DNA of 38,860 bases from IMG/VR virus record IMGVR_UViG_2713896899_000004; one strand, given 5' to 3'. The notes beneath the pieces were generated by a model. It had not been told where the DNA came from and did no database searches. It saw nothing but the letters and a program-made list of their open reading frames with translations. This document shows, in pieces, positions 1-38,860 of the stretch; position 1 is the stretch's first letter, and each line of letters starts with the position of its first letter. Made by a program: the position numbers and the translations under genes. Origin of the DNA: a virus (lineage: Duplodnaviria; Heunggongvirae; Uroviricota; Caudoviricetes).

Positions 1-3
1 TAG

Positions 4-76
4 TCTAAAAACTAGTATTAAGACTATCACTTATTTAAGTGATATTGGTTGTCTGGAGATTCAGGGGGCCAGTCTA
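4..76. repeat. Left terminal inverted repeat (73 bp), perfect reverse complement of 38788-38860; contains internal 20-bp palindrome tatcacttatttaagtgata (25-44)
   Basis: Manual reverse-complement of the last 73 nt matches positions 4-76 base for base; match breaks at position 77 / 38787. Confidence 0.9.
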
Positions 77-1576: not shown

Positions 1577-2282
1577 CAGGAGATCAAGGATGAAGACTCC
1601 GAGAGGCATTCGTAATAATAACCCCGGTAATCTTGATAAAGGATCACCGTGGCAAGGTCTGGTTGCGAATCCAGACGAACCGCGCTTTTGCACGTTTAAA
1701 GACCCTGTTTGGGGGATTCGTGCGCTGGCGGTGACTCTAATTACCTACCACGATAAACGTCGCGCAAAAGACGGCTCAAGTATCGATACCATTCGTGAAG
1801 TTATTGAACGCTGGGCACCGCCGAATGAAAACAATACTGACGCCTACATTAATGAGGTGTCTAAGGCCGTTGGTGTAACCGCAGACATGATCATCGATCT
1901 GCATGATTACGACATCCTTCGACCTTTGGTTGAGGCAATCATTCGCCACGAGAATGGCCAGGGTCCGCTAAAAACGCTGAACACCTGGTATGCGGCAGAA
2001 GTTATTGAGGAAGGTCTGCGTCGGGCTGGCGTTGTTAAGCCGGTGAAAACCGTGAAGGCTGTTCCTGTAACTAAAGAAACAGCAGGCGCAACTGTTACAG
2101 CAGGTATTGGTCTGGCGCAGCTGGCCGATGTTATGCCGCAGGTTTCCGCTGCTATGGATAAGGCACAAGGCCATATCTCTAGCGGGGATACAGTACGCAT
2201 CATCTTCGGTATTGCCACTATTGTTGTGGCAGGATTCATTGCCTGGTCACAGGTAAGAAAACACCAGAAAGGGATGGTCTAA
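1563..2282 (+). CDS. Putative endolysin / peptidoglycan hydrolase with C-terminal TM segment
   Basis: Position directly upstream of the Rz/Rz1 pair (1-nt gap) and overlapping the upstream membrane protein; conserved-looking N-terminus RNNNPGNL; C-terminal hydrophobic helix. Function inferred mainly from gene order. Confidence 0.4.
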   Translation: MDCNNRRSRMKTPRGIRNNNPGNLDKGSPWQGLVANPDEPRFCTFKDPVWGIRALAVTLITYHDKRRAKDGSSIDTIREVIERWAPPNENNTDAYINEVSKAVGVTADMIIDLHDYDILRPLVEAIIRHENGQGPLKTLNTWYAAEVIEEGLRRAGVVKPVKTVKAVPVTKETAGATVTAGIGLAQLADVMPQVSAAMDKAQGHISSGDTVRIIFGIATIVVAGFIAWSQVRKHQKGMV

Positions 2283-2283
2283 T

Positions 2284-2535
2284 ATGCTAGGCAGCCTGAT
2301 GACAAAGCTAAAAGTTGCTTTGATTACGCTGGCTGCCGTTCTTTTCGTTCTGGTCGGCGCTTACACGATGGGCGGGAATGCAGCACGACGAGCAATGGAA
2401 GAGAAGGCAAAACAGGAAGACAGAAAACGACTTCAAAGCACAGTGGACGTCAAAAATGAAACACTTGATGAGTTACGGCGCAAGGATGCTTCTTCTGTTC
2501 ATCATGAGTTGCACAATAAGTGGTTGCGTGATTAA
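2284..2535 (+). CDS. Rz-like inner-membrane spanin (i-spanin)
   Basis: N-terminal TM helix (LKVALITLAAVLFVLVGAY) followed by charged coiled-coil-like region; a lipoprotein ORF starts inside it in another frame. Confidence 0.55.
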   Translation: MLGSLMTKLKVALITLAAVLFVLVGAYTMGGNAARRAMEEKAKQEDRKRLQSTVDVKNETLDELRRKDASSVHHELHNKWLRD

Positions 2536-2686
2536 GCCTCAACCCGCTGGTGTGCTTTTCTGCGATGCGGCTACACCGCTATACATCAGTCGTGATGATC
2601 TCATGACCGAAGAGACTGAAAGAGAGATGCTTTTACACAATATGATAGGGGAGCGATTGTGTGGATGGGGCAGAAAAGTGCCATAA
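2456..2686 (+). CDS. Rz1-like outer-membrane lipoprotein spanin (o-spanin), overlapping Rz
   Basis: Frame +1 relative to Rz; lipobox ISGC with a short mature peptide; starts within Rz and extends past its stop. Start codon uncertain (2456, 2468 or 2486). Confidence 0.5.
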   Translation: MKHLMSYGARMLLLFIMSCTISGCVIKPQPAGVLFCDAATPLYISRDDLMTEETEREMLLHNMIGERLCGWGRKVP

Positions 2687-2863
2687 TAAAAGTGGAGTTT
2701 TCTAACATAAAATTTGCATATTATTAGAGCACAAGGTAGATTTGGCACATGGATGTCAAGCAAATCATACCTTGTTTTAATACATCGACGCATACTCGTA
2801 GCCTCTAAACTCTGACAAGAGTCGCCGCTATGACATTAAGTTAATACCGGCTAAGGTGGACAC

Positions 2864-3247
2864 ATGCTGAACGAAAAACGTTCTATACAAACAATTCGCG
2901 ATTGCACGAGTGTTATCGCAACCCATGTGCTGAATAAGCGCAAACTTGAGGTGCGTAAACTTAACAACGATGCGACAGCGCCAAAAGACACTCGCTTCAT
3001 CGTCACTTTCAAAGACGATGTTGAGAATGCTGGTGCCAGTGTAAAACCGTTGGCTGAAGCGATTTTCCTGAACGATCGTGTGCGTTTCATTGTGAAGCCA
3101 GCAAAACAATACCCTGAATTAGCACGGTTTAGTGATCAATTCTCTGAAATTATTGAGAGTGCAATTCGCCGCTTTCTTAATACTCATGGTAGCATTGTCA
3201 GCAATACAACTGCTGATGGTACTGCTCTAAGATGGCACCTACACTAG
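2864..3247 (+). CDS. Hypothetical protein
   Basis: ORF with RBS aaggtgg upstream of ATG. Confidence 0.5.
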   Translation: MLNEKRSIQTIRDCTSVIATHVLNKRKLEVRKLNNDATAPKDTRFIVTFKDDVENAGASVKPLAEAIFLNDRVRFIVKPAKQYPELARFSDQFSEIIESAIRRFLNTHGSIVSNTTADGTALRWHLH

Positions 3248-3984
3248 AACGCACATACTCTAAAAATCTTGATGAGTTTCCTCACCGTGGGGAAACTCGC
3301 GTTTCACGTTTTGGCTACCTCATCAACGAAGCATCGCTTTTCAAAATATCTGAAATAACCATCATCGAGCCTGATGATGATATCTGTCTGTATATCCTGA
3401 TGGAGAAAGTTGGAGCACGAGATCAGGGTGAACTGATGGACTTCATTCTGGACAGAGGCGAAGATGGAATGTCTGATTCAGACATTATTCAAGCTATTCT
3501 GCGTTCCGACATGCTCGATCAGAGCAGAAACACGATAGCAGGCAGAATTGCCTTGCGTGAATACACATTCATCGAGGATGGGGTAGAGATTGACTGCTAT
3601 CAGATTGCAGGTGTTGAAACAGAAAGAGCAATAAGGCAAAGGGGGCTGTGCAACCTCACGTATCGCTTCCTCCTTCATTGGTACGAACATCTTGTCTGTG
3701 ATTACAATCAGACCATCCCTGGCGCAAAAATTTGGGCCGGCCCATTAATGCGAACAGGTGATGTAAGAATTTACAACGCAAAAACTGAGACGTTCGAGGA
3801 TGTGTTAGGCGAGTATGGAATGGGAAAAGAAACCGGCTTTTTGCCGTGGAACAGAGGATTGTTGCTTGATCCAGAATTAAGCTCTTGGTTCCCAAACAAG
3901 GTGCAAGTTAACATTGAGAAATTTATCGTACTTATCATCTCCCGCAAAACAAGAACTCCAGTAGGTTTATACCTAAAAGATTAA
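3232..3984 (+). CDS. Hypothetical protein
   Basis: 250-aa ORF overlapping the upstream stop; followed by a terminator. Confidence 0.5.
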   Translation: MAPTLERTYSKNLDEFPHRGETRVSRFGYLINEASLFKISEITIIEPDDDICLYILMEKVGARDQGELMDFILDRGEDGMSDSDIIQAILRSDMLDQSRNTIAGRIALREYTFIEDGVEIDCYQIAGVETERAIRQRGLCNLTYRFLLHWYEHLVCDYNQTIPGAKIWAGPLMRTGDVRIYNAKTETFEDVLGEYGMGKETGFLPWNRGLLLDPELSSWFPNKVQVNIEKFIVLIISRKTRTPVGLYLKD

Positions 3985-4160: not shown

Positions 4161-4829
4161 ATGACCAAGATCTTTGTGGTTGGCGGCACAAAGGGCGGGC
4201 CTGGCAAATCCACCGTTGCCCAGCAAATTGCCGTTTGCCTGAAAGTCAAAAAGAAGAAGAAGGTTTATGTCACCGATATAGATATTCAGCGCACGACAAC
4301 GAGCTGGTGTGAAGACCGTCGACAGAACGAAGATCTTGAGCTGATTCCTTTTGCATACGTACAAGATGACATCATTAAGCACCTAAAATCGCTTCAGGGT
4401 AGAGCTGAGTATGTAGTGGTAGATGCTGGTGGCTTTGACTCCGAAATTCAGCGACAAGCGATGCTGATGGCCGACATTATCATTATCCCGCTGCGTCCTA
4501 AGCGTCGTGATTTGAAATCTCTGCGTGACATCGATCCTATTATCGACAATGTTCGCAATGTAAACGATAAAGTGAAGGTCCGCGCGGTCATGAACCAGTG
4601 CCCGGCTTTGCCATCACAAGTATCTCGCATTCTGGCGGCTAAAGAGATTGTCGAGACGTTTGGCATCGAGTCTGCGCCTGTCAATCTATATAACCGCAAC
4701 GTCTACGATGATGCGGAAGAGGCTGGTCGTTCTATCTTTGAAATGACCGGTAGCGAGCGCGACAAAAAGGCGGAAGCCGAGTTTGAAGAATTTGTAGATT
4801 ATCTGTTGAGTCTGGAGGAAGAAGAATAA
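4161..4829 (+). CDS. parA: ParA/MinD-family partition ATPase (small type)
   Basis: Deviant Walker A GGTKGGPGKST near the N-terminus; 222 aa; translationally coupled (TAATG) to a small downstream ORF. Confidence 0.75.
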   Translation: MTKIFVVGGTKGGPGKSTVAQQIAVCLKVKKKKKVYVTDIDIQRTTTSWCEDRRQNEDLELIPFAYVQDDIIKHLKSLQGRAEYVVVDAGGFDSEIQRQAMLMADIIIIPLRPKRRDLKSLRDIDPIIDNVRNVNDKVKVRAVMNQCPALPSQVSRILAAKEIVETFGIESAPVNLYNRNVYDDAEEAGRSIFEMTGSERDKKAEAEFEEFVDYLLSLEEEE

Positions 4830-5188
4830 TGTCCATGAAAATGGGTGACCTAGCAAAGCGCAAAGAGCCTGATGCACCGGCTAAGAACACAACTCCTTTG
4901 CGCCAACCAGTCAGACCACAGGGACGCCCGACTCGTGGCAAAGAGAAAATTAAAAGCCGCACAATGTCACTGGAAGACGAATACTTCGAACTGCTGGAGA
5001 TGATGAAGTTCATCCCTCGTTTCGAGAAGTTCACTCGTTCTGACGTGATTCGCGCAGCCATTTTCCATCTGGCAGAGAAGTCACCGCAGGAAATCGAGGA
5101 CATCGTGAAACTGAACGAGGCGATCACAGCTGCCGATGTCACGATGCGTACCGATGAAATTAAACGCGAGTTAATGAAGAAAGGTTGA
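4829..5188 (+). CDS. Putative partition adaptor / centromere-binding protein (ParG/ParB-like partner)
   Basis: 119-aa basic N-terminus, coupled to parA; role inferred from operon position only. Confidence 0.4.
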   Translation: MSMKMGDLAKRKEPDAPAKNTTPLRQPVRPQGRPTRGKEKIKSRTMSLEDEYFELLEMMKFIPRFEKFTRSDVIRAAIFHLAEKSPQEIEDIVKLNEAITAADVTMRTDEIKRELMKKG

Positions 5189-14246: not shown

Positions 14247-14321
14247 GATGGTGTAGCTCAGCGGTAGAGCAGTTGGCTGTTAACCAACTGGTCGGTGGTT
14301 CGAATCCACCCACCATCGCCA
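14247..14321 (+). tRNA. tRNA-Asn (anticodon GTT)
   Basis: Hand-folded cloverleaf: 7-bp acceptor gatggtg/caccatc, anticodon loop ctGTTaa, T-loop ttcgaat, 3' CCA encoded; differs from the E. coli tRNA-Asn sequence. Confidence 0.8.
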
Positions 14322-14323
14322 AT

Positions 14324-14399
14324 GCCGGTTTAGCTCAGTTGGTAGAGCGCCTGCCTTGTAAGCAGGATGTCAGCGGTTCGAGTCCGTTAACCGGCACCA
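14324..14399 (+). tRNA. tRNA-Thr (anticodon TGT)
   Basis: Acceptor gccggtt/aaccggc, D-arm gctcagttggtagagc, anticodon loop ctTGTaa, T-loop ttcgagt, CCA encoded. Confidence 0.8.
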
Positions 14400-14623
14400 A
14401 TACAACGATAAGATCATTACGGTTAATCGTCGTTCATGTGCACAATGACTGGTCGAAAGGTAGTGATCTTACCGTTGTGGTGGATTCGCAGACTGATGCG
14501 ATAGCTTTCTTGGATGTTAGGGAAATGCGGCCGCAAATCTTCCCTTTCGCGAGCGGTGATCGTCCGTAGTCCTAATTGGCTGCACCGTATGCCGGAGATT
14601 CAGTACCGGCCACCACAACGGCC

Positions 14624-14710
14624 GGAGAGTAGGGAGCATGGTGCTCAAGCGGTCTTGAAAACCGCCCCATTGCGCAAGCGATGATGGTTCGATTCCATTA
14701 CTCTCCGCCA
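14624..14710 (+). tRNA. tRNA-Ser (anticodon TGA), class II with long variable arm
   Basis: Acceptor ggagagt/actctcc, anticodon stem-loop gcggt-ctTGAaa-accgc, long variable arm, T-loop ttcgatt, CCA encoded; D-arm slightly irregular. Confidence 0.65.
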
Positions 14711-32879: not shown

Positions 32880-33269
32880 ATGCTTTTAATTCAACCTGGG
32901 TTCGGTTTAAAGATAAAAAAAGGACATATGTTCGGTTTCAAAGAATCGAAACGAAAAATTCTGTCCATTAGATTGCCGTTTATCACCATTCATTGGTTAA
33001 ACAGAGAGTCAACCGATTATTGGTATAAATGTGCTCTGGCCGCATTTAACGACCCTGACTGGTTTATAGAAAACCACCATGCTGTTCGTCAGGCAAAGAG
33101 AAAAGCTAATACGACATACATGAAGGCGTATCGGAAGGCATGGAAAGAACACCGCGATCGATACCAAAAAGACATGGAGAAACTTGAATTGGAAAATATG
33201 GATCTAAGAAGGAAGCTCGGTGAAGCACGGCGAGATATTGAAGCATATAAACGTCTTGTATCGGAGTGA
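32880..33269 (+). CDS. Hypothetical protein with basic coiled-coil C-terminus
   Basis: RBS gagg upstream of ATG; 129 aa. Confidence 0.45.
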   Translation: MLLIQPGFGLKIKKGHMFGFKESKRKILSIRLPFITIHWLNRESTDYWYKCALAAFNDPDWFIENHHAVRQAKRKANTTYMKAYRKAWKEHRDRYQKDMEKLELENMDLRRKLGEARRDIEAYKRLVSE

Positions 33270-33332
33270 ATATATCTTTGCTTTATTTTTTTCAAAGGTG
33301 ATTATTTTCCTATTTATAAGGAGAAGTAAAAC

Positions 33333-33758
33333 ATGGCAGCAATTAAGAAACTCTACGATGCCGCAAACGCGGCTCTGGATGTTATTGATGATGAAGTATC
33401 AAAAGGCTTTCCTGAACCTGATTGGGCGCATCAGCTACGAAACGCTATCGCCGAAATGAATCCACCAAATCCGACAACCGACGAGACAGACTGGCAGCGA
33501 TTTATCCGTATGTACGCTCAGGAAATAGGTCCAACGCCAACGGCAGAGCAAGCAATGCTGCTGAAATACTTCAAAGAGGCGGGAGAGGATTTACCAATTG
33601 ATGACTCAGCATATTGGTTCCACTGCGCATGGCGTAAGTATGACGTGATATTCACACAAGGCATGGGGAGCAAAGATATGGTTGTGTGGCATCTACTCCA
33701 TATAGACACAGCCGTTGACAGAGTTATTGAACAGTTTTTCCCTAAACAAGAAGATTGA
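33333..33758 (+). CDS. Hypothetical protein
   Basis: RBS aaggag upstream of ATG; 141 aa. Confidence 0.5.
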   Translation: MAAIKKLYDAANAALDVIDDEVSKGFPEPDWAHQLRNAIAEMNPPNPTTDETDWQRFIRMYAQEIGPTPTAEQAMLLKYFKEAGEDLPIDDSAYWFHCAWRKYDVIFTQGMGSKDMVVWHLLHIDTAVDRVIEQFFPKQED

Positions 33759-34640: not shown

Positions 34641-34852
34641 TGGCATTAACACTGGCAGGTCTGGAAATCGAGAAAACAAGCGGATACTGGCGTGCTAAGG
34701 GTTTCAAGCAGCCTGGCGTTCTTGAGCGTCTGGAACGTGAAGATGGGTATATCGTCCACCAGCGGCGTGAATGGCGTATGTACGATCCAGAAACAGGAAA
34801 ACTGACTACAAAAGCCGGAACACTTTGGGGTCTGTTGAAGAAAATACACTAA
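34640..34852 (+). CDS. Hypothetical protein
   Basis: 70-aa ORF translationally coupled to the upstream gene. Confidence 0.45.
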   Translation: MALTLAGLEIEKTSGYWRAKGFKQPGVLERLEREDGYIVHQRREWRMYDPETGKLTTKAGTLWGLLKKIH

Positions 34853-34898
34853 ATGCAAACTGACTGCGGCTCGTTCCGCAGTCATATTTCATAGTCGT

Positions 34899-35432
34899 CA
34901 CCGCTGACAGCATACACAATCAACTGCCGCTGATAGCATATCGAGAGTCTATCTCACCGCTCACAGCATACTTTACTCGATTTTTTACCGCTGACAGCAT
35001 ACTTAAGACATTGCATGAATAATGTGTACCGGTATGGGTATAACCAGAACAAAATTACCGCTGGCAGCATACGAAGGTCTGACATATGCCATTAATTACC
35101 GCTGATAGCATATCCAAACAAAAATTCCTCAATAAAACACCGCAGACAGCATACGTTCTATCAGGGAGCAGCAGGCAATAAATGCCTTTCACTACAAGCA
35201 ATCAGCGCAATAGCAATAGAATGTTAGTGAGCGCAAACCTATATGGAATGCACTCTTCGAGGTTAGTAACCACTGGGGAGGTATGACAGAGCATTGAGTG
35301 GTGATAGATGATTTACCGCTCACAGCATACGTTCATCTCACTAGACCGCTGGTAGCATATCTTTAACCGTTCACAGCATACTTTTCAGAAAAATAGCCGC
35401 TGATAGCATACATTTCACCGCTGACAGCATAT
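34899..35432. repeat. Iteron array, about 12 copies of a 17-bp repeat (consensus yACCGCTGACAGCATAC), downstream of rep (copy-control, incA-like)
   Basis: Copies read at 34899, 34924, 34955, 34986, 35056, 35097, 35138, 35314, 35344, 35365, 35395 and 35416, in both orientations with irregular spacing. Confidence 0.8.
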
Positions 35433-36526
35433 CAAAGCAGTTTGAGACTATTGGAAAGGATCTCAATCATCTTGATATTTTCAGGCGTCAAATTCTGCGA
35501 AAGTTCAGTTATCTTGTTGATAATGTTCTGTTTAGCATCAATTTCCCCGGCTTTCTCATCTGGTTTTTTGGGTTCGATGTCTTCAGGTTTTGGCGGTGCG
35601 ACTTTAAGTTTTGGATTGCGGCTATGAATCTGGATATAGATCGACCGCCCTCGCTTAATCTCGCTGTATTCGAGATAGCCCAAATCTTGGAGAGCTTTTA
35701 AGCCGTTACGTATAGTCTGATTCTGCGAGCTTACATTCCTGCTACTCAAATTGAGTCGCGCACGCAATCGAGCAAGCGATACCGGCGCAGGCTTGGTTGG
35801 AAGACTTTCGATGAAGGTGTACAGAGCCTGTGCTGTTTCTTTGCGTGGTAGCTTATTGATAACCTTTAACTGCAAAAGAACCTTATGGTCAAAGCGATAT
35901 AGTTCGGCCAGCTTCGGTTCTGCATAGAACACCACCGTATCTTTCTGCTCGTTGTAGTCCACGCTATTGATGAGGTGCACCATCAGAAGCGAGATCTTGT
36001 TAGAGCCGTCGACGTTCTTTTCTTCATACGTTCTCTGGAAAGACAGAGTTGTACGCATGATCTTCAAAAGACTGTTTGTAAGCCGGTCGCGGAGTGTTTT
36101 GCGGATCTGTGACGATGGATAGCCACAAAACTTCGCAAATTTCGTGATGCTTAACTCGACACGACCGTTAGGTTCGCCGTATTCTGCCAGCGAACGCACA
36201 ACGCCCACCCACGTTTTGAAATCATGATCCATGTCGAGACGAGGACCGGTTATCTTGATATCGGAATAGCCTTCAGAACGGGCTACTTCGAGCTGAACAA
36301 GCTCCTTTGAAGCATCGATCTCATTTGGCTTGTTACGCTTGCTGTATTTTGTCCCCTTGAGCGTGGGCACGAACAACCCCAGCCGCATCAACGCAATTGG
36401 TTGGACTGTATTGTTGCTATTAGGGACAAGTTCCCCTGTGTACAATTCAAGGGAACCTTCTTCAAAGTTGTCGAGATTATCTTCTACTTCTTTGTTATTT
36501 TTACCTTTTTTATTTTTTGTGGACAT
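35432..36526 (-). CDS. Iteron-binding replication initiator (Rep, plasmid RepA-like)
   Basis: Gene sits between two iteron arrays. Start set at internal ATG (36526) with RBS aaagg, because the track's 40-aa N-terminal extension reads through iterons. Basic protein, Arg/Leu-rich C-terminus. Confidence 0.6.
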   Translation of the reverse strand: MSTKNKKGKNNKEVEDNLDNFEEGSLELYTGELVPNSNNTVQPIALMRLGLFVPTLKGTKYSKRNKPNEIDASKELVQLEVARSEGYSDIKITGPRLDMDHDFKTWVGVVRSLAEYGEPNGRVELSITKFAKFCGYPSSQIRKTLRDRLTNSLLKIMRTTLSFQRTYEEKNVDGSNKISLLMVHLINSVDYNEQKDTVVFYAEPKLAELYRFDHKVLLQLKVINKLPRKETAQALYTFIESLPTKPAPVSLARLRARLNLSSRNVSSQNQTIRNGLKALQDLGYLEYSEIKRGRSIYIQIHSRNPKLKVAPPKPEDIEPKKPDEKAGEIDAKQNIINKITELSQNLTPENIKMIEILSNSLKLL

Positions 36527-36545
36527 GTGGACACCTTTGTCATTC

Positions 36546-36648
36546 AACCGCTGACAGCATACTTGATTTGCCGCTGGCAGCATACCAAAAACAGTTGGCA
36601 GCATACGGCGAACCGTTGACAGACTATCAATTACCGCTGGCAGCATAC
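36546..36648. repeat. Iteron array, 4-5 copies of the same 17-bp repeat, upstream of rep (origin iterons)
   Basis: Copies at 36546, 36569, 36592 (degenerate), 36611 (degenerate) and 36632. Confidence 0.75.
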
Positions 36649-36688
36649 ATGAACATGGCTTCAGACCAGTCGTGGCGCGGCTTACAGC

Positions 36689-36770
36689 GATCGGGGATCT
36701 TATTTGATCTATACAAGGATCTATCTATGGATCTCTTTATTAGGATCTATCCTGTGGATATGTGAATAAT
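36689..36770. promoter_or_regulatory. Origin-associated GATC cluster (six GATC in about 60 bp, five GGATCT-type heptamers) plus DnaA-box-like tgtggatat
   Basis: GATC at 36689, 36696, 36706, 36718, 36729 and 36744; tgtggatat (36754-36762) matches the DnaA box complement TGTGGATAA at 8 of 9 positions. Confidence 0.6.
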
Positions 36771-36847
36771 TAAAACAGGCATTTACTACCTTCGGCGCAC
36801 CTGGTGGGTTATCGTTGCCTCGGCTAACAATCACAGAAAAATGACAT

Positions 36848-37492
36848 ATGGATCTAAAACGCACGCGCTGGGTTCGTCGTCTTGAAGACGGCTCCTACAC
36901 TATCGAATCAAATTCCAACCTGAATAAGCAGAAGTTGCTTTGTGACATCTGCGGTATAGCGGCGAAGTGCCCGATCTACGAAACCAGAATTAAACTTGAT
37001 AAGGCTGGTGTGAATTTTCATTTAAACAGTTGCATCAGGTACGTTCCATTGCTCGCATTTCGTAAACCGATCATCGGATTGGATGCCCCCTACTTCAACA
37101 CACTCCGTTCAGGTGTGACGTGGCGAGATCGTTTATCACCAGACAAGCTGATTTGCCTTGTATCCGCAGACACAGGGAAAATCATCCGTTTTGGGAAAGT
37201 AGACAAGGTTTACTCAGGTCCAGTAGACGAAATGTTGCGGAAACACAGCCGGTTTAATCATCTCTGTATGGGTGGTGAGAAAATCGAAAAGGTGGAAGAA
37301 GTGATCCGTAAATCCTACGGACACTTCCTGACCAAAGATAGCCTGCTCACCGCAATCTACATCAGACATGTAAAACGTGAGTTCGACCTCGAATACCACA
37401 GTGAAGAAGAGCTTAACCTTGTTGACCCACGTCCAAAAGCTGGCGTCATAAGCATAAACGCAGCGCGTAAAAAGCCCACTGACGCGCTGTAA
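36848..37492 (+). CDS. Hypothetical protein
   Basis: 214-aa ORF; no motif recognised. Confidence 0.5.
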   Translation: MDLKRTRWVRRLEDGSYTIESNSNLNKQKLLCDICGIAAKCPIYETRIKLDKAGVNFHLNSCIRYVPLLAFRKPIIGLDAPYFNTLRSGVTWRDRLSPDKLICLVSADTGKIIRFGKVDKVYSGPVDEMLRKHSRFNHLCMGGEKIEKVEEVIRKSYGHFLTKDSLLTAIYIRHVKREFDLEYHSEEELNLVDPRPKAGVISINAARKKPTDAL

Positions 37493-37746: not shown

Positions 37747-38790
37747 ATGACTTTGCCATACGGCGTCATTTCTGACTGCCACTACCACAAATGGGATGCG
37801 TTCTCCACGACGAACGCTGAGGGGCTTAACTCCAGACTTGAAATACAGTTGGAAGCAACGAAAGAAGCAGCCATCGCCATGAAGAAGGCCGGTTGTAAGT
37901 ACATGTTGGTTGCCGGTGATACATTTCACGTCCGAGGAACTGTGTCCCCTTCTGTTTTGCATTACGTAACTGAAACGTACAAGTGGATTATCAACGAGCT
38001 TGATCTGACAGTAGTAATGCTGGCCGGTAATCACGATCTTGAAACCAACGATTCAGTATATAGCGCCAACGCAGCAGCATCGCTGAGTTCTATCGGCGTG
38101 GTAATCGTATGTGGCAAGCGCCCACACTCAATAAAAATTGGTGATGTGACTGTCCACCTGATTAGCTGGCGTAACAATCATGCGGAGCTTATCAGCGATC
38201 TGAAAGCATTACGTAAGAGCGTAGAAGGTGATAATCATGACGTTGTTATCCATACATCCATTAACAAAGCCATTCCAACAATGCCTGACGTCGGTATCGA
38301 TGCGCAGGAGTTAAAGGATATCGGCTTTCGTCTCGTGCTTAGTGGGCATTACCACAACCACAAAGAGGTCATTCCTGGAGTTATCAGTGTCGGTGCGCTG
38401 ACCCATCAAAATTGGGGAGATGTTGGATCTCTGGCTGGTTACATGATCGTAAACCCGGACGGCAGTTTCAGTCACTACGAAACCAGTGCGCCTAAATTCA
38501 TTAACCTGGAAGATTATGTTGCCGATGACCAAATTCGCGGCAACTACGTGCGTTTCCGCGCCGTAATTGAGAACGATGAAGAAGGCATTAAGTACCAGAA
38601 TATCCTCAAAACAATGGGCGCAAAAGGTGTCGTGTGCAACTTCATCCGTAAGTCATCAATGATGGAAGGGACAGCAAGCACAACGGAAACCAGCAAAATC
38701 GATAGCTTGGGAGAGTCGGTATCTGCTTATTGCAAGATTGTCCACGATACTGACGGCGGATTTGATCTGAGCAAGTTGGATATTTTGTAG
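37747..38790 (+). CDS. Calcineurin-like metallophosphoesterase (SbcD/Mre11-like nuclease family)
   Basis: Phosphoesterase motifs in order: DCHYH, AGDTFH, AGNHD, SGHYHNH; conserved aaaggaaaaacacATG start; stop codon lies inside the right TIR. Confidence 0.6.
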   Translation: MTLPYGVISDCHYHKWDAFSTTNAEGLNSRLEIQLEATKEAAIAMKKAGCKYMLVAGDTFHVRGTVSPSVLHYVTETYKWIINELDLTVVMLAGNHDLETNDSVYSANAAASLSSIGVVIVCGKRPHSIKIGDVTVHLISWRNNHAELISDLKALRKSVEGDNHDVVIHTSINKAIPTMPDVGIDAQELKDIGFRLVLSGHYHNHKEVIPGVISVGALTHQNWGDVGSLAGYMIVNPDGSFSHYETSAPKFINLEDYVADDQIRGNYVRFRAVIENDEEGIKYQNILKTMGAKGVVCNFIRKSSMMEGTASTTETSKIDSLGESVSAYCKIVHDTDGGFDLSKLDIL

Positions 38791-38860
38791 ACTGGCCCCC
38801 TGAATCTCCAGACAACCAATATCACTTAAATAAGTGATAGTCTTAATACTAGTTTTTAGA
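38788..38860. repeat. Right terminal inverted repeat (73 bp), partner of 4-76
   Basis: Same comparison; the stop codon of the last CDS (38788-38790) lies inside the repeat. Confidence 0.9.

Follow-up and report, generated by a model that had tools for sequence, protein, structure and literature searches.

In the GenBank record of phage P1, the plasmid replicon opens with an oriR that contains a DnaA site and five Dam sites, continues through the five incC iterons, which contain PrepA, and then through repA, and closes with incA, an array of nine iterons whose start is the final base of repA; the same record also annotates the functions of P1 RepA. Related initiators are encoded by the RepFIB replicons of IncF plasmids and by a lineage of phage-plasmids that includes SSU5 and pLF82, and Klebsiella IncpKPHS1 plasmids with SSU5-phage-like regions have been described as having no more than four iterons after repA and a RepA without known domains (PMC6735626). 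Here we analyze the region 34899-36770 of the IMG/VR virus record IMGVR_UViG_2713896899_000004, a stretch of 38,860 nucleotides that we refer to in its entirety as the window. Judging from its sequence, this region is very probably the plasmid-maintenance (plasmid-prophage) replicon of an SSU5-like Escherichia coli phage-plasmid, with an initiator of the P1 RepA / RepFIB family. Its replicon type is IncFIB(H89-PhagePlasmid) in the PlasmidFinder scheme, an assignment made indirectly, by sequence, through a near-identical plasmid that has been typed: over 2001 bp, the window shows 98.3% identity to p47258-4, a plasmid of 110,844 bp from E. coli strain 47258 that is reported as IncFIB(H89-PhagePlasmid) (PMC12838234). 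In MOB-suite the replicon corresponds to rep_cluster_488. The label p0111, considered as an alternative type, was rejected, as it designates a P1-like replicon type. A literature search found no published description of the origin anatomy of H89-type replicons.

The interpretation of this region as an iteron replicon is supported because the homology of its Rep protein, the fold predicted for it and the alignment of its origin all point to a P1-type initiator system. The sole long open reading frame (ORF) in the region lies on the minus strand (35432-36646), so that sites upstream of rep are those on its higher-coordinate side. Rep shows 46% identity to P1 RepA (BLASTP E-value of 4e-86, spanning P1 residues 20-284 of 286; tblastn E-value of 2e-64) and is slightly closer (~50%) to the classical RepFIB initiators, which are found on >5000 PLSDB plasmids. 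Identity amounts to 48% with the RepA of SSU5 and of phage Cyrano, a pLF82-type element, in agreement with the 48% given for pLF82 RepA in the description of plasmid pECOH89 (PMC3999498), and reaches 85% with the Rep of Klebsiella SSU5-like elements. Pfam Rep3_N is matched at 37.5 bits (gathering cut-off of 22.4; E-value of 3.9e-9), PF01051 (Rep_3) is carried by 120 of the 120 Rep homologues among the matches listed, and Rep falls in PHROG 775; neither this Rep nor P1 RepA is covered by an NCBIfam model. The name "replication helicase", found in PHROG 775 and in several RefSeq phage records (P1, P7, SSU5), is a misnomer for RepA-type initiators.

The predicted structure leads in the same direction. 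An AlphaFold (AF2) model built from 40 homologues reached a predicted local distance difference test (pLDDT) score of 71 overall and of 80-92 over most of residues 80-210; a single-sequence model, with a pLDDT of 39, was discarded. The top PDB matches of the model in Foldseek were RctB domains 2-3 (E-value of 1e-7), RepE (2z9o, 1rep), 8ac8 (a complex of Rep with single-stranded DNA of the DNA-unwinding element), pi (2nra) and pPS10 RepA, with template-modeling scores that are modest (0.4-0.5 on the target). According to this model, Rep has the tandem WH1-WH2 winged-helix initiator fold of the RepE/RctB class. Sequence searches of the PDB with Rep alone or with a seven-sequence profile returned nothing meaningful and no detectable homology to RepE. 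A sequence-only reading of the same DNA had made its case contingent on Rep not pointing to a non-initiator family; what the searches returned is a P1 RepA homologue with a Rep3_N match and a RepE/RctB/pi-like fold. At its C-terminus, Rep has a linker and a two-helix tail that are absent from P1 RepA. The notion that this tail (residues 310-364) is a speciality of phage-plasmids was rejected, since RepFIB-type Reps generally have it and the P1/P7 group alone lacks it.

We place the start of rep at the conserved ATG at 36526, which follows the Shine-Dalgarno-like AAGGTG. In alignments, the homologues from Klebsiella, Rosenbergiella and SSU5 begin at this methionine, and Klebsiella sp. L008 has an in-frame stop four codons upstream of the matching ATG. 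RefSeq/PGAP records of identical plasmids give rep a length of 404 amino acids, with a start equivalent to 36646 that reads through all five origin iterons. By sequence, this longer version, with its extension over 36527-36646, is probably wrong.

The origin lies upstream of rep, and its core aligns with P1 oriR (Table 1). In the alignment, the tandem DnaA boxes at its outer edge fall on the DnaA-binding site annotated in P1 and the adjoining GATC cluster on the five annotated Dam sites (1-5), and the nucleotide stretches common to both elements comprise ...TTATCCAC(A/T)GGATAGATCC..., the heptamers, AGATCCCnGATCG, GCCGCGCCACGnCTGG and, in the GC-rich spacer, GCCGCGCCACG-CTGG. On this alignment, the origin core is homologous to P1 oriR base for base, and both iteron arrays are placed as in P1, so the P1-like arrangement proposed in the sequence-only reading is borne out at the nucleotide level. 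That reading had also pointed to one near-consensus DnaA box; a box is indeed present, but it is one of two in tandem. Against the DnaA-box consensus, TTATNCACA, TTATTCACA fits and ATATCCACA matches at 8/9 positions. The boxes are kept in the Klebsiella, SSU5, Cronobacter JK004, RCS47, Rosenbergiella and RepFIB loci. Six GATC sites in about 60 bp had likewise been claimed beside the upstream array, and six are found in 59 bp, starting at 36689, 36696, 36706, 36718, 36730 and 36744. Their claimed arrangement as GGATCT holds for four of the six on the plus strand, the other two reading TGATCT and CGATCG. In 200 first-order Markov simulations of the window, six GATC in 60 bp were never attained (the maximum, five, was seen once), and the maximum elsewhere in the real window is two. 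AT content is 68% in the heptamer segment, as opposed to 42% in the spacer segment, and the heptamer region is presumed to be both the DNA-unwinding element and the target of Dam and SeqA.

Table 1. Features of the replicon and of its boundaries, from the outer edge of the origin to the far end of the control array (window coordinates).
Feature	Position	Strand	Description
Two tandem DnaA boxes	36753..36769	-	Outer edge of the origin; TTATTCACA (36769-36761) and ATATCCACA (36761-36753), with one base in common
GATC-heptamer region	36689..36752	-	AT-rich (68% AT); five AGATC(C/A) heptamers and one CGATCG
GC-rich spacer	36649..36688	-	58% GC, between heptamers and iterons; contains GCCGCGCCACGaCTGG (P1 counterpart motif, GCCGCGCCACGtCTGG)
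Origin iterons	36547..36648	-	Five, direct; core GTATGCTGYCAGCGGT; 21/21/21/23 bp start-to-start; equivalent of P1 incC
rep leader	36518..36546	-	AAGGTG and two tandem TGTCCACA motifs (7/9 match to a DnaA box) overlapping the ATG
rep	35432..36526	-	364-amino-acid iteron-binding initiator of the P1 RepA / RepFIB family, by homology; stop codon at 35432-35434
Control array, proximal block	35315..35432	-	Five direct iterons at intervals of 21/30/21/30; overlap of the first with the rep stop codon, as for P1 incA
Iteron-free spacer	35155..35314		Splits the control array; 160 bp (176 bp start-to-start)
Control array, distal block	34900..35154	-	Seven direct iterons, spacing 41/41/70/31/30/26
Hairpin	34861..34884		9-bp GC-rich stem, terminator-like on both strands; outer boundary of the replicon

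The iterons themselves amount to 17 copies of a 16-bp repeat, all in the same orientation. A search for ACCGCTGACAGCATAC with up to three mismatches yielded 16 matches within 34900-36648 and one stray match inside a tRNA gene, compared with 0.19 in shuffled sequence, and allowing four mismatches brought in an in-phase fifth upstream copy (36612-36627). The 12 copies downstream of rep and five upstream are in line with the roughly 12 and four to five first counted from the sequence; the repeat length of 17 bp given with them is not, as information content falls sharply on either side of RTATGCTGYCAGCGGY and the conserved unit is thus one of 16 bp. A Klebsiella relative has an identical number and spacing of origin iterons, and a comparison of the window with the Klebsiella element gives 89% identity at iteron positions, against 60% at spacer positions. 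The 20-bp attachment sites annotated as attR and attL in the GenBank record of Klebsiella phage pJN2-26 (1378-1397 and 2648-2667) are iterons flanking rep. An inverted iteron-like site inside rep (36179-36194, with four mismatches) was set aside as being close to chance level (by our estimate, ~0.3 expected per 8 kb).

The downstream array, whose first iteron occupies 35432-35417, is read here as a copy-control array. Its iteron number varies among relatives, from 12 in three E. coli plasmids to nine in phage PhiR41_1, which is without the three outermost distal iterons, eight in pJN2-26, six in Klebsiella sp. and four in Rosenbergiella. Such variation would also suit an array that serves as a second origin or as a centromere-like site for partition, or one that has arisen by neutral amplification of iterons, and the nearest ParA-like gene is 30 kb off, so that a cis-acting site near rep is conceivable. 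We nevertheless regard these alternatives as very improbable. The repeats share the 16-bp sequence of the origin iterons and would therefore be bound by the same protein, the array begins at the rep stop codon exactly as P1 incA does, and no DnaA boxes or GATC cluster were found beside it. Moreover, the full array is kept by ~120 plasmids at 98-99.9% identity and it moves together with rep in the cassette exchange discussed below. Copy control hence remains our preferred reading of the array. The spacer that splits it is present in E. coli relatives, whereas the Klebsiella element has an unrelated and shorter gap. On the rep-sense strand this spacer folds somewhat better than its shuffles (z-score of -2.86, as opposed to -1.29 on the other strand), yet it is unconserved in the Klebsiella element and we do not claim an RNA within it; an Rfam search of 34800-36900 detected no RNA family.

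The same architecture is found in eight other replicons, in which the iteron sequence co-varies with the type of Rep and the core is kept; the origin core is common to Klebsiella pJN2-26, SSU5, Cronobacter JK004, RCS47, Klebsiella sp., Rosenbergiella and a classical RepFIB plasmid. With the P1 replicon (oriR/incC - repA - incA; IncY) the likeness goes beyond RepA homology to the order of the core, which in both cases proceeds from tandem DnaA boxes through GATC heptamers and a GC-rich spacer to five iterons ~21 bp, or about two helical turns, apart (with a last interval of 23 bp in the window and 22 bp in P1, after three of 21 bp), and to the second array starting at the rep stop codon. The two differ in the sequence of the iteron (GTATGCTGYCAGCGGT in the window, GATGTGTGCTGGAGGG in P1) and in the make-up of the control array, with 12 iterons in direct orientation, split five and seven between two blocks, in the window, as opposed to nine (three direct and six inverted) in P1. 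The all-direct array is a variant of the P1 array, and not of its principle. The window is also without a parAB-parS system after the array, where it has small opposite-strand genes of no assigned function; its Rep, with longer N- and C-termini, comprises 364 amino acids against 286 in P1; and its host element is an SSU5-like siphovirus-type phage-plasmid rather than a P1-like one.

The RepFIB replicons of IncF plasmids (such as pEC517_1, or REPI of pColV-K30) have a slightly closer Rep, a DnaA box and five-GATC core of the same sequence family, and the linker and helical tail at the C-terminus of Rep; the window-type Rep is indeed labelled RepFIB in typing schemes and by some annotators. Their repeats, however, are irregular and of another sequence, the gap between core and rep is longer, and their hosts are conjugative F-type plasmids. 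SSU5 and pLF82 (phage Cyrano), typed as IncFIB(pLF82-PhagePlasmid), share the overall plan, but their iterons are of the ATCCACTGTAG type and the downstream copies are in mixed orientation. Klebsiella SSU5-like phage-plasmids (such as phage pJN2-26) have the same iteron consensus and a control array in which all iterons are direct, and differ from the window in having eight control iterons and a gap of 87 bp start-to-start. More distantly, mini-F RepFIA (oriS/incB - repE - incC) and chromosome II of Vibrio cholerae (RctB) follow the same logic, with the initiator gene lying between origin iterons and control array, and the Rep model matches the folds of RepE and RctB. The mini-F system is set apart by the lack of RepE sequence homology in the PDB searches and of any inverted half-iteron operator of the RepE type, which was looked for and not found. 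Chromosome II, in turn, has its GATC sites inside the iterons (PMC6090056), and the window has them beside the iterons.

What is observed here is the layout of the sequence, and the steps by which the replicon would operate are proposed because of its homology to P1 and RepFIB; replication, Dam dependence and copy control of the H89-type replicon are deduced by analogy with these systems. Monomeric Rep would bind the five phased origin iterons and host DnaA the tandem boxes at the far edge, and together they would open the AT-rich heptamer region between them, at which the host replisome would be loaded. Firing would require Dam methylation of the heptamers, and after replication the hemimethylated heptamers would be held by SeqA, blocking immediate re-initiation. 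The 12 downstream iterons would bind the same Rep and keep copy number low through Rep titration and through pairing with the origin iterons (handcuffing), and Rep bound at the origin iterons would probably also repress its own promoter.

The role of methylation in this scheme deserves separate consideration. The GATC heptamers might simply be an inherited AT-rich unwinding element or a site for SeqA sequestration, with the origin firing without methylation, as in E. coli oriC, and the replicon not being Dam-dependent. The number of GATC sites does vary in relatives, with four in 60 bp in JK004 and five in P1, RCS47 and RepFIB, and the rep-proximal copy of a duplicated core in Cyrano has been retained despite the loss of most of its GATC sites. 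We judge this alternative unlikely, though not negligible. Opposing it, five of the six replicons in the alignment have AGATCCCnGATCG (in JK004, GTAC replaces the last GATC), and the two relatives that have been studied are both, as far as the titles in the reference list of PMC2865523 convey, methylation-controlled: P1 oriR reportedly needs methylated DNA (the titles being those of Abeles and Austin, 1987, and of Abeles, Brendler and Austin, 1993), and Dam methylation is said to control the RepFIB (REPI) replicon as well (the title being that of Gammie and Crosa, 1991). The element family also carries its own adenine methyltransferase: in intact relatives a phage N6-adenine methyltransferase gene lies ~15 kb beyond rep, outside the window (33031-33624 in the pSTEC409_1 locus), and the pECOH89 paper lists dam (PMC3999498). 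A methylation-dependent origin is thus still favored, but the requirement for a Dam-positive host that had been read from the sequence may be less weighty, and the element may not rely on host Dam alone, because its relatives carry a methyltransferase of their own.

Several observations weigh against the proposed replicon or parts of its working. The control array departs from P1 incA in its 12 all-direct copies and two blocks. The TGTCCACA motifs in the rep leader, for which the Klebsiella relative has GTATCCACA, are by sequence a possible counterpart of the rep-side DnaA boxes of P1, a weak assignment given that they match at only 7/9 positions. A standard scan of the rep strand revealed no convincing sigma-70 promoter for rep; the best candidate (TTGATA-19 nt-TATGCT, 36630-36600) is weak and lies inside iterons 2-3. 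Lastly, the element encodes its own helicase, primase, Pol III alpha, single-stranded DNA-binding protein (SSB) and ligase, and the replisome acting at the origin may thus be either the host's or the element's own. This last point opens the way to a reading in which the replicon is a relic and maintenance replication is carried out by the element's own replisome from another origin, a case for which the DnaB-like helicase, primase, Pol III alpha, gp32-like SSB, ligase and RecA encoded in the window could be invoked. We find it scarcely credible: rep is intact and conserved, the iterons are better conserved than the spacers between them, this is the sole replicon typed on p503440_100 and pSTEC409_1, and every relative examined keeps one such replicon, even where the cassette type is different. 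A working replicon of the P1/RepFIB family therefore stands as the preferred reading.

Comparison with pLF82-type elements suggests that the parts of this replicon do not share a single history. The window is 94% identical to phage Cyrano from 38400 down to 36660, a segment that includes the DnaA boxes, the heptamers and the GC spacer, and 98.5% identical from 34869 down to 33600, but no nucleotide similarity is detectable between 34870-36659 and the corresponding Cyrano locus (1884-3964). One breakpoint (36660/36659) precedes the first iteron by ~12 bp, the other (34869) falls inside the boundary hairpin, and ~69 PLSDB records display the same sharp stop at the end of a flanking gene of 70 amino acids. 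Because both flanks are 94-98.5% identical and the block between them is without detectable similarity, the iterons-rep-iterons block looks, on sequence comparison, like a unit that is inherited and exchanged as one with pLF82-type relatives, the DnaA/GATC core staying with the backbone. In Cyrano, the origin core and five iterons are tandemly duplicated upstream of repA (1783-2395), and in the rep-proximal copy of the core most GATC sites are mutated to GACC or GAAC. It is, to us, an evenly balanced proposition that 34870-36659 constitutes an exchangeable specificity cassette, with the host-factor part of the origin and the terminator hairpin as its recombination joints. Near-identical phage-plasmids could in this manner switch incompatibility group (H89 versus pLF82) with their interplay with DnaA, Dam and SeqA unchanged, and an exchange of this kind would have left the half-decayed duplicate of Cyrano as its scar.

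The distribution of the replicon is that of an extrachromosomal element. Of 5426 complete E. coli genomes, 120 contain it, with the matching places all on plasmids (185 of 185) and none on the chromosome, and its region has 98-99% identity with phage PhiR41_1 and with >100 non-mobilizable plasmids of E. coli, Shigella and E. albertii; among the matches listed, most of the matching plasmids measure ~100-115 kb. The backbone is SSU5-like, with 98% identity to PhiR41_1, 94-98.5% identity to Cyrano on the flanks and a gene order as in SSU5, and the window represents the replication module of such a phage-plasmid. Its gene content comprises a ParA-like ATPase, a DnaB-like helicase, a primase, an ATP-dependent ligase, three tRNAs, an integrase-family recombinase and CobT/AAA proteins, together with Pol III alpha, a gp32-like SSB, a 5'-3' exonuclease, RecA and an SbcD-like nuclease, and the element's own replication proteins span 7330-30026. 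The ParA-like ATPase (4161-4829, 222 amino acids), ~30 kb from rep, is followed by a 119-amino-acid protein of PHROG 5111, with no assigned function. The two are a possible partition pair (4161-5188), unlike P1, where par adjoins incA.

Other features of the window bear on its annotation. Divergent from the origin lies a gene of 214 amino acids (36848-37492), whose position is kept in the SSU5, Klebsiella and Cyrano elements; its product is annotated with an ASCH domain in the Cyrano record, has no Pfam match here and falls in PHROG 2105, with no assigned function. A tRNA cluster (14247-14710) contains Asn(GTT), Thr(TGT) and a long-arm Ser(TGA); ARAGORN calls the third a tRNA-Ser, and the Rfam tRNA-Sec model matches it exactly at threshold (47.1 versus 47). 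Only the Thr and Asn tRNAs were reported for pECOH89 (PMC3999498). The two ends of the window (1-76 and 38788-38860) carry the same terminal sequence of IS2 in inverted orientation, matching the DNA just before the IS2 transposase gene of a relative (an initial identification as IS100 was rejected), and the right-hand copy truncates the SbcD-like metallophosphoesterase to 347 amino acids, against 361 in intact relatives. The window is thus probably an assembly contig broken at IS2 copies.

Taken as a whole, the H89-type replicon belongs cleanly to the P1/RepFIB family and is carried by a known lineage of phage-plasmids; it is well formed, ordinary and without surprise, its type is already in plasmid-typing databases and it adds no new principle of replication control. 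The analysis conducted here provides exact coordinates for the origin, the initiator and the control array of a replicon present in ~2% of complete E. coli genomes, members of whose type (pECOH89 and similar plasmids) have been reported to carry blaCTX-M-15 (PMC3999498, PMC12838234). It also corrects annotations in which the start of rep is drawn through the iterons, iterons are taken for attL and attR and RepA becomes a replication helicase, and it defines a fragment for cloning as a mini-replicon, its use lying in annotation and in the construction of mini-replicons. For the biology of these elements, it leads to the prediction that phage-plasmids would be incompatible within a type and compatible across the H89 and pLF82 types.

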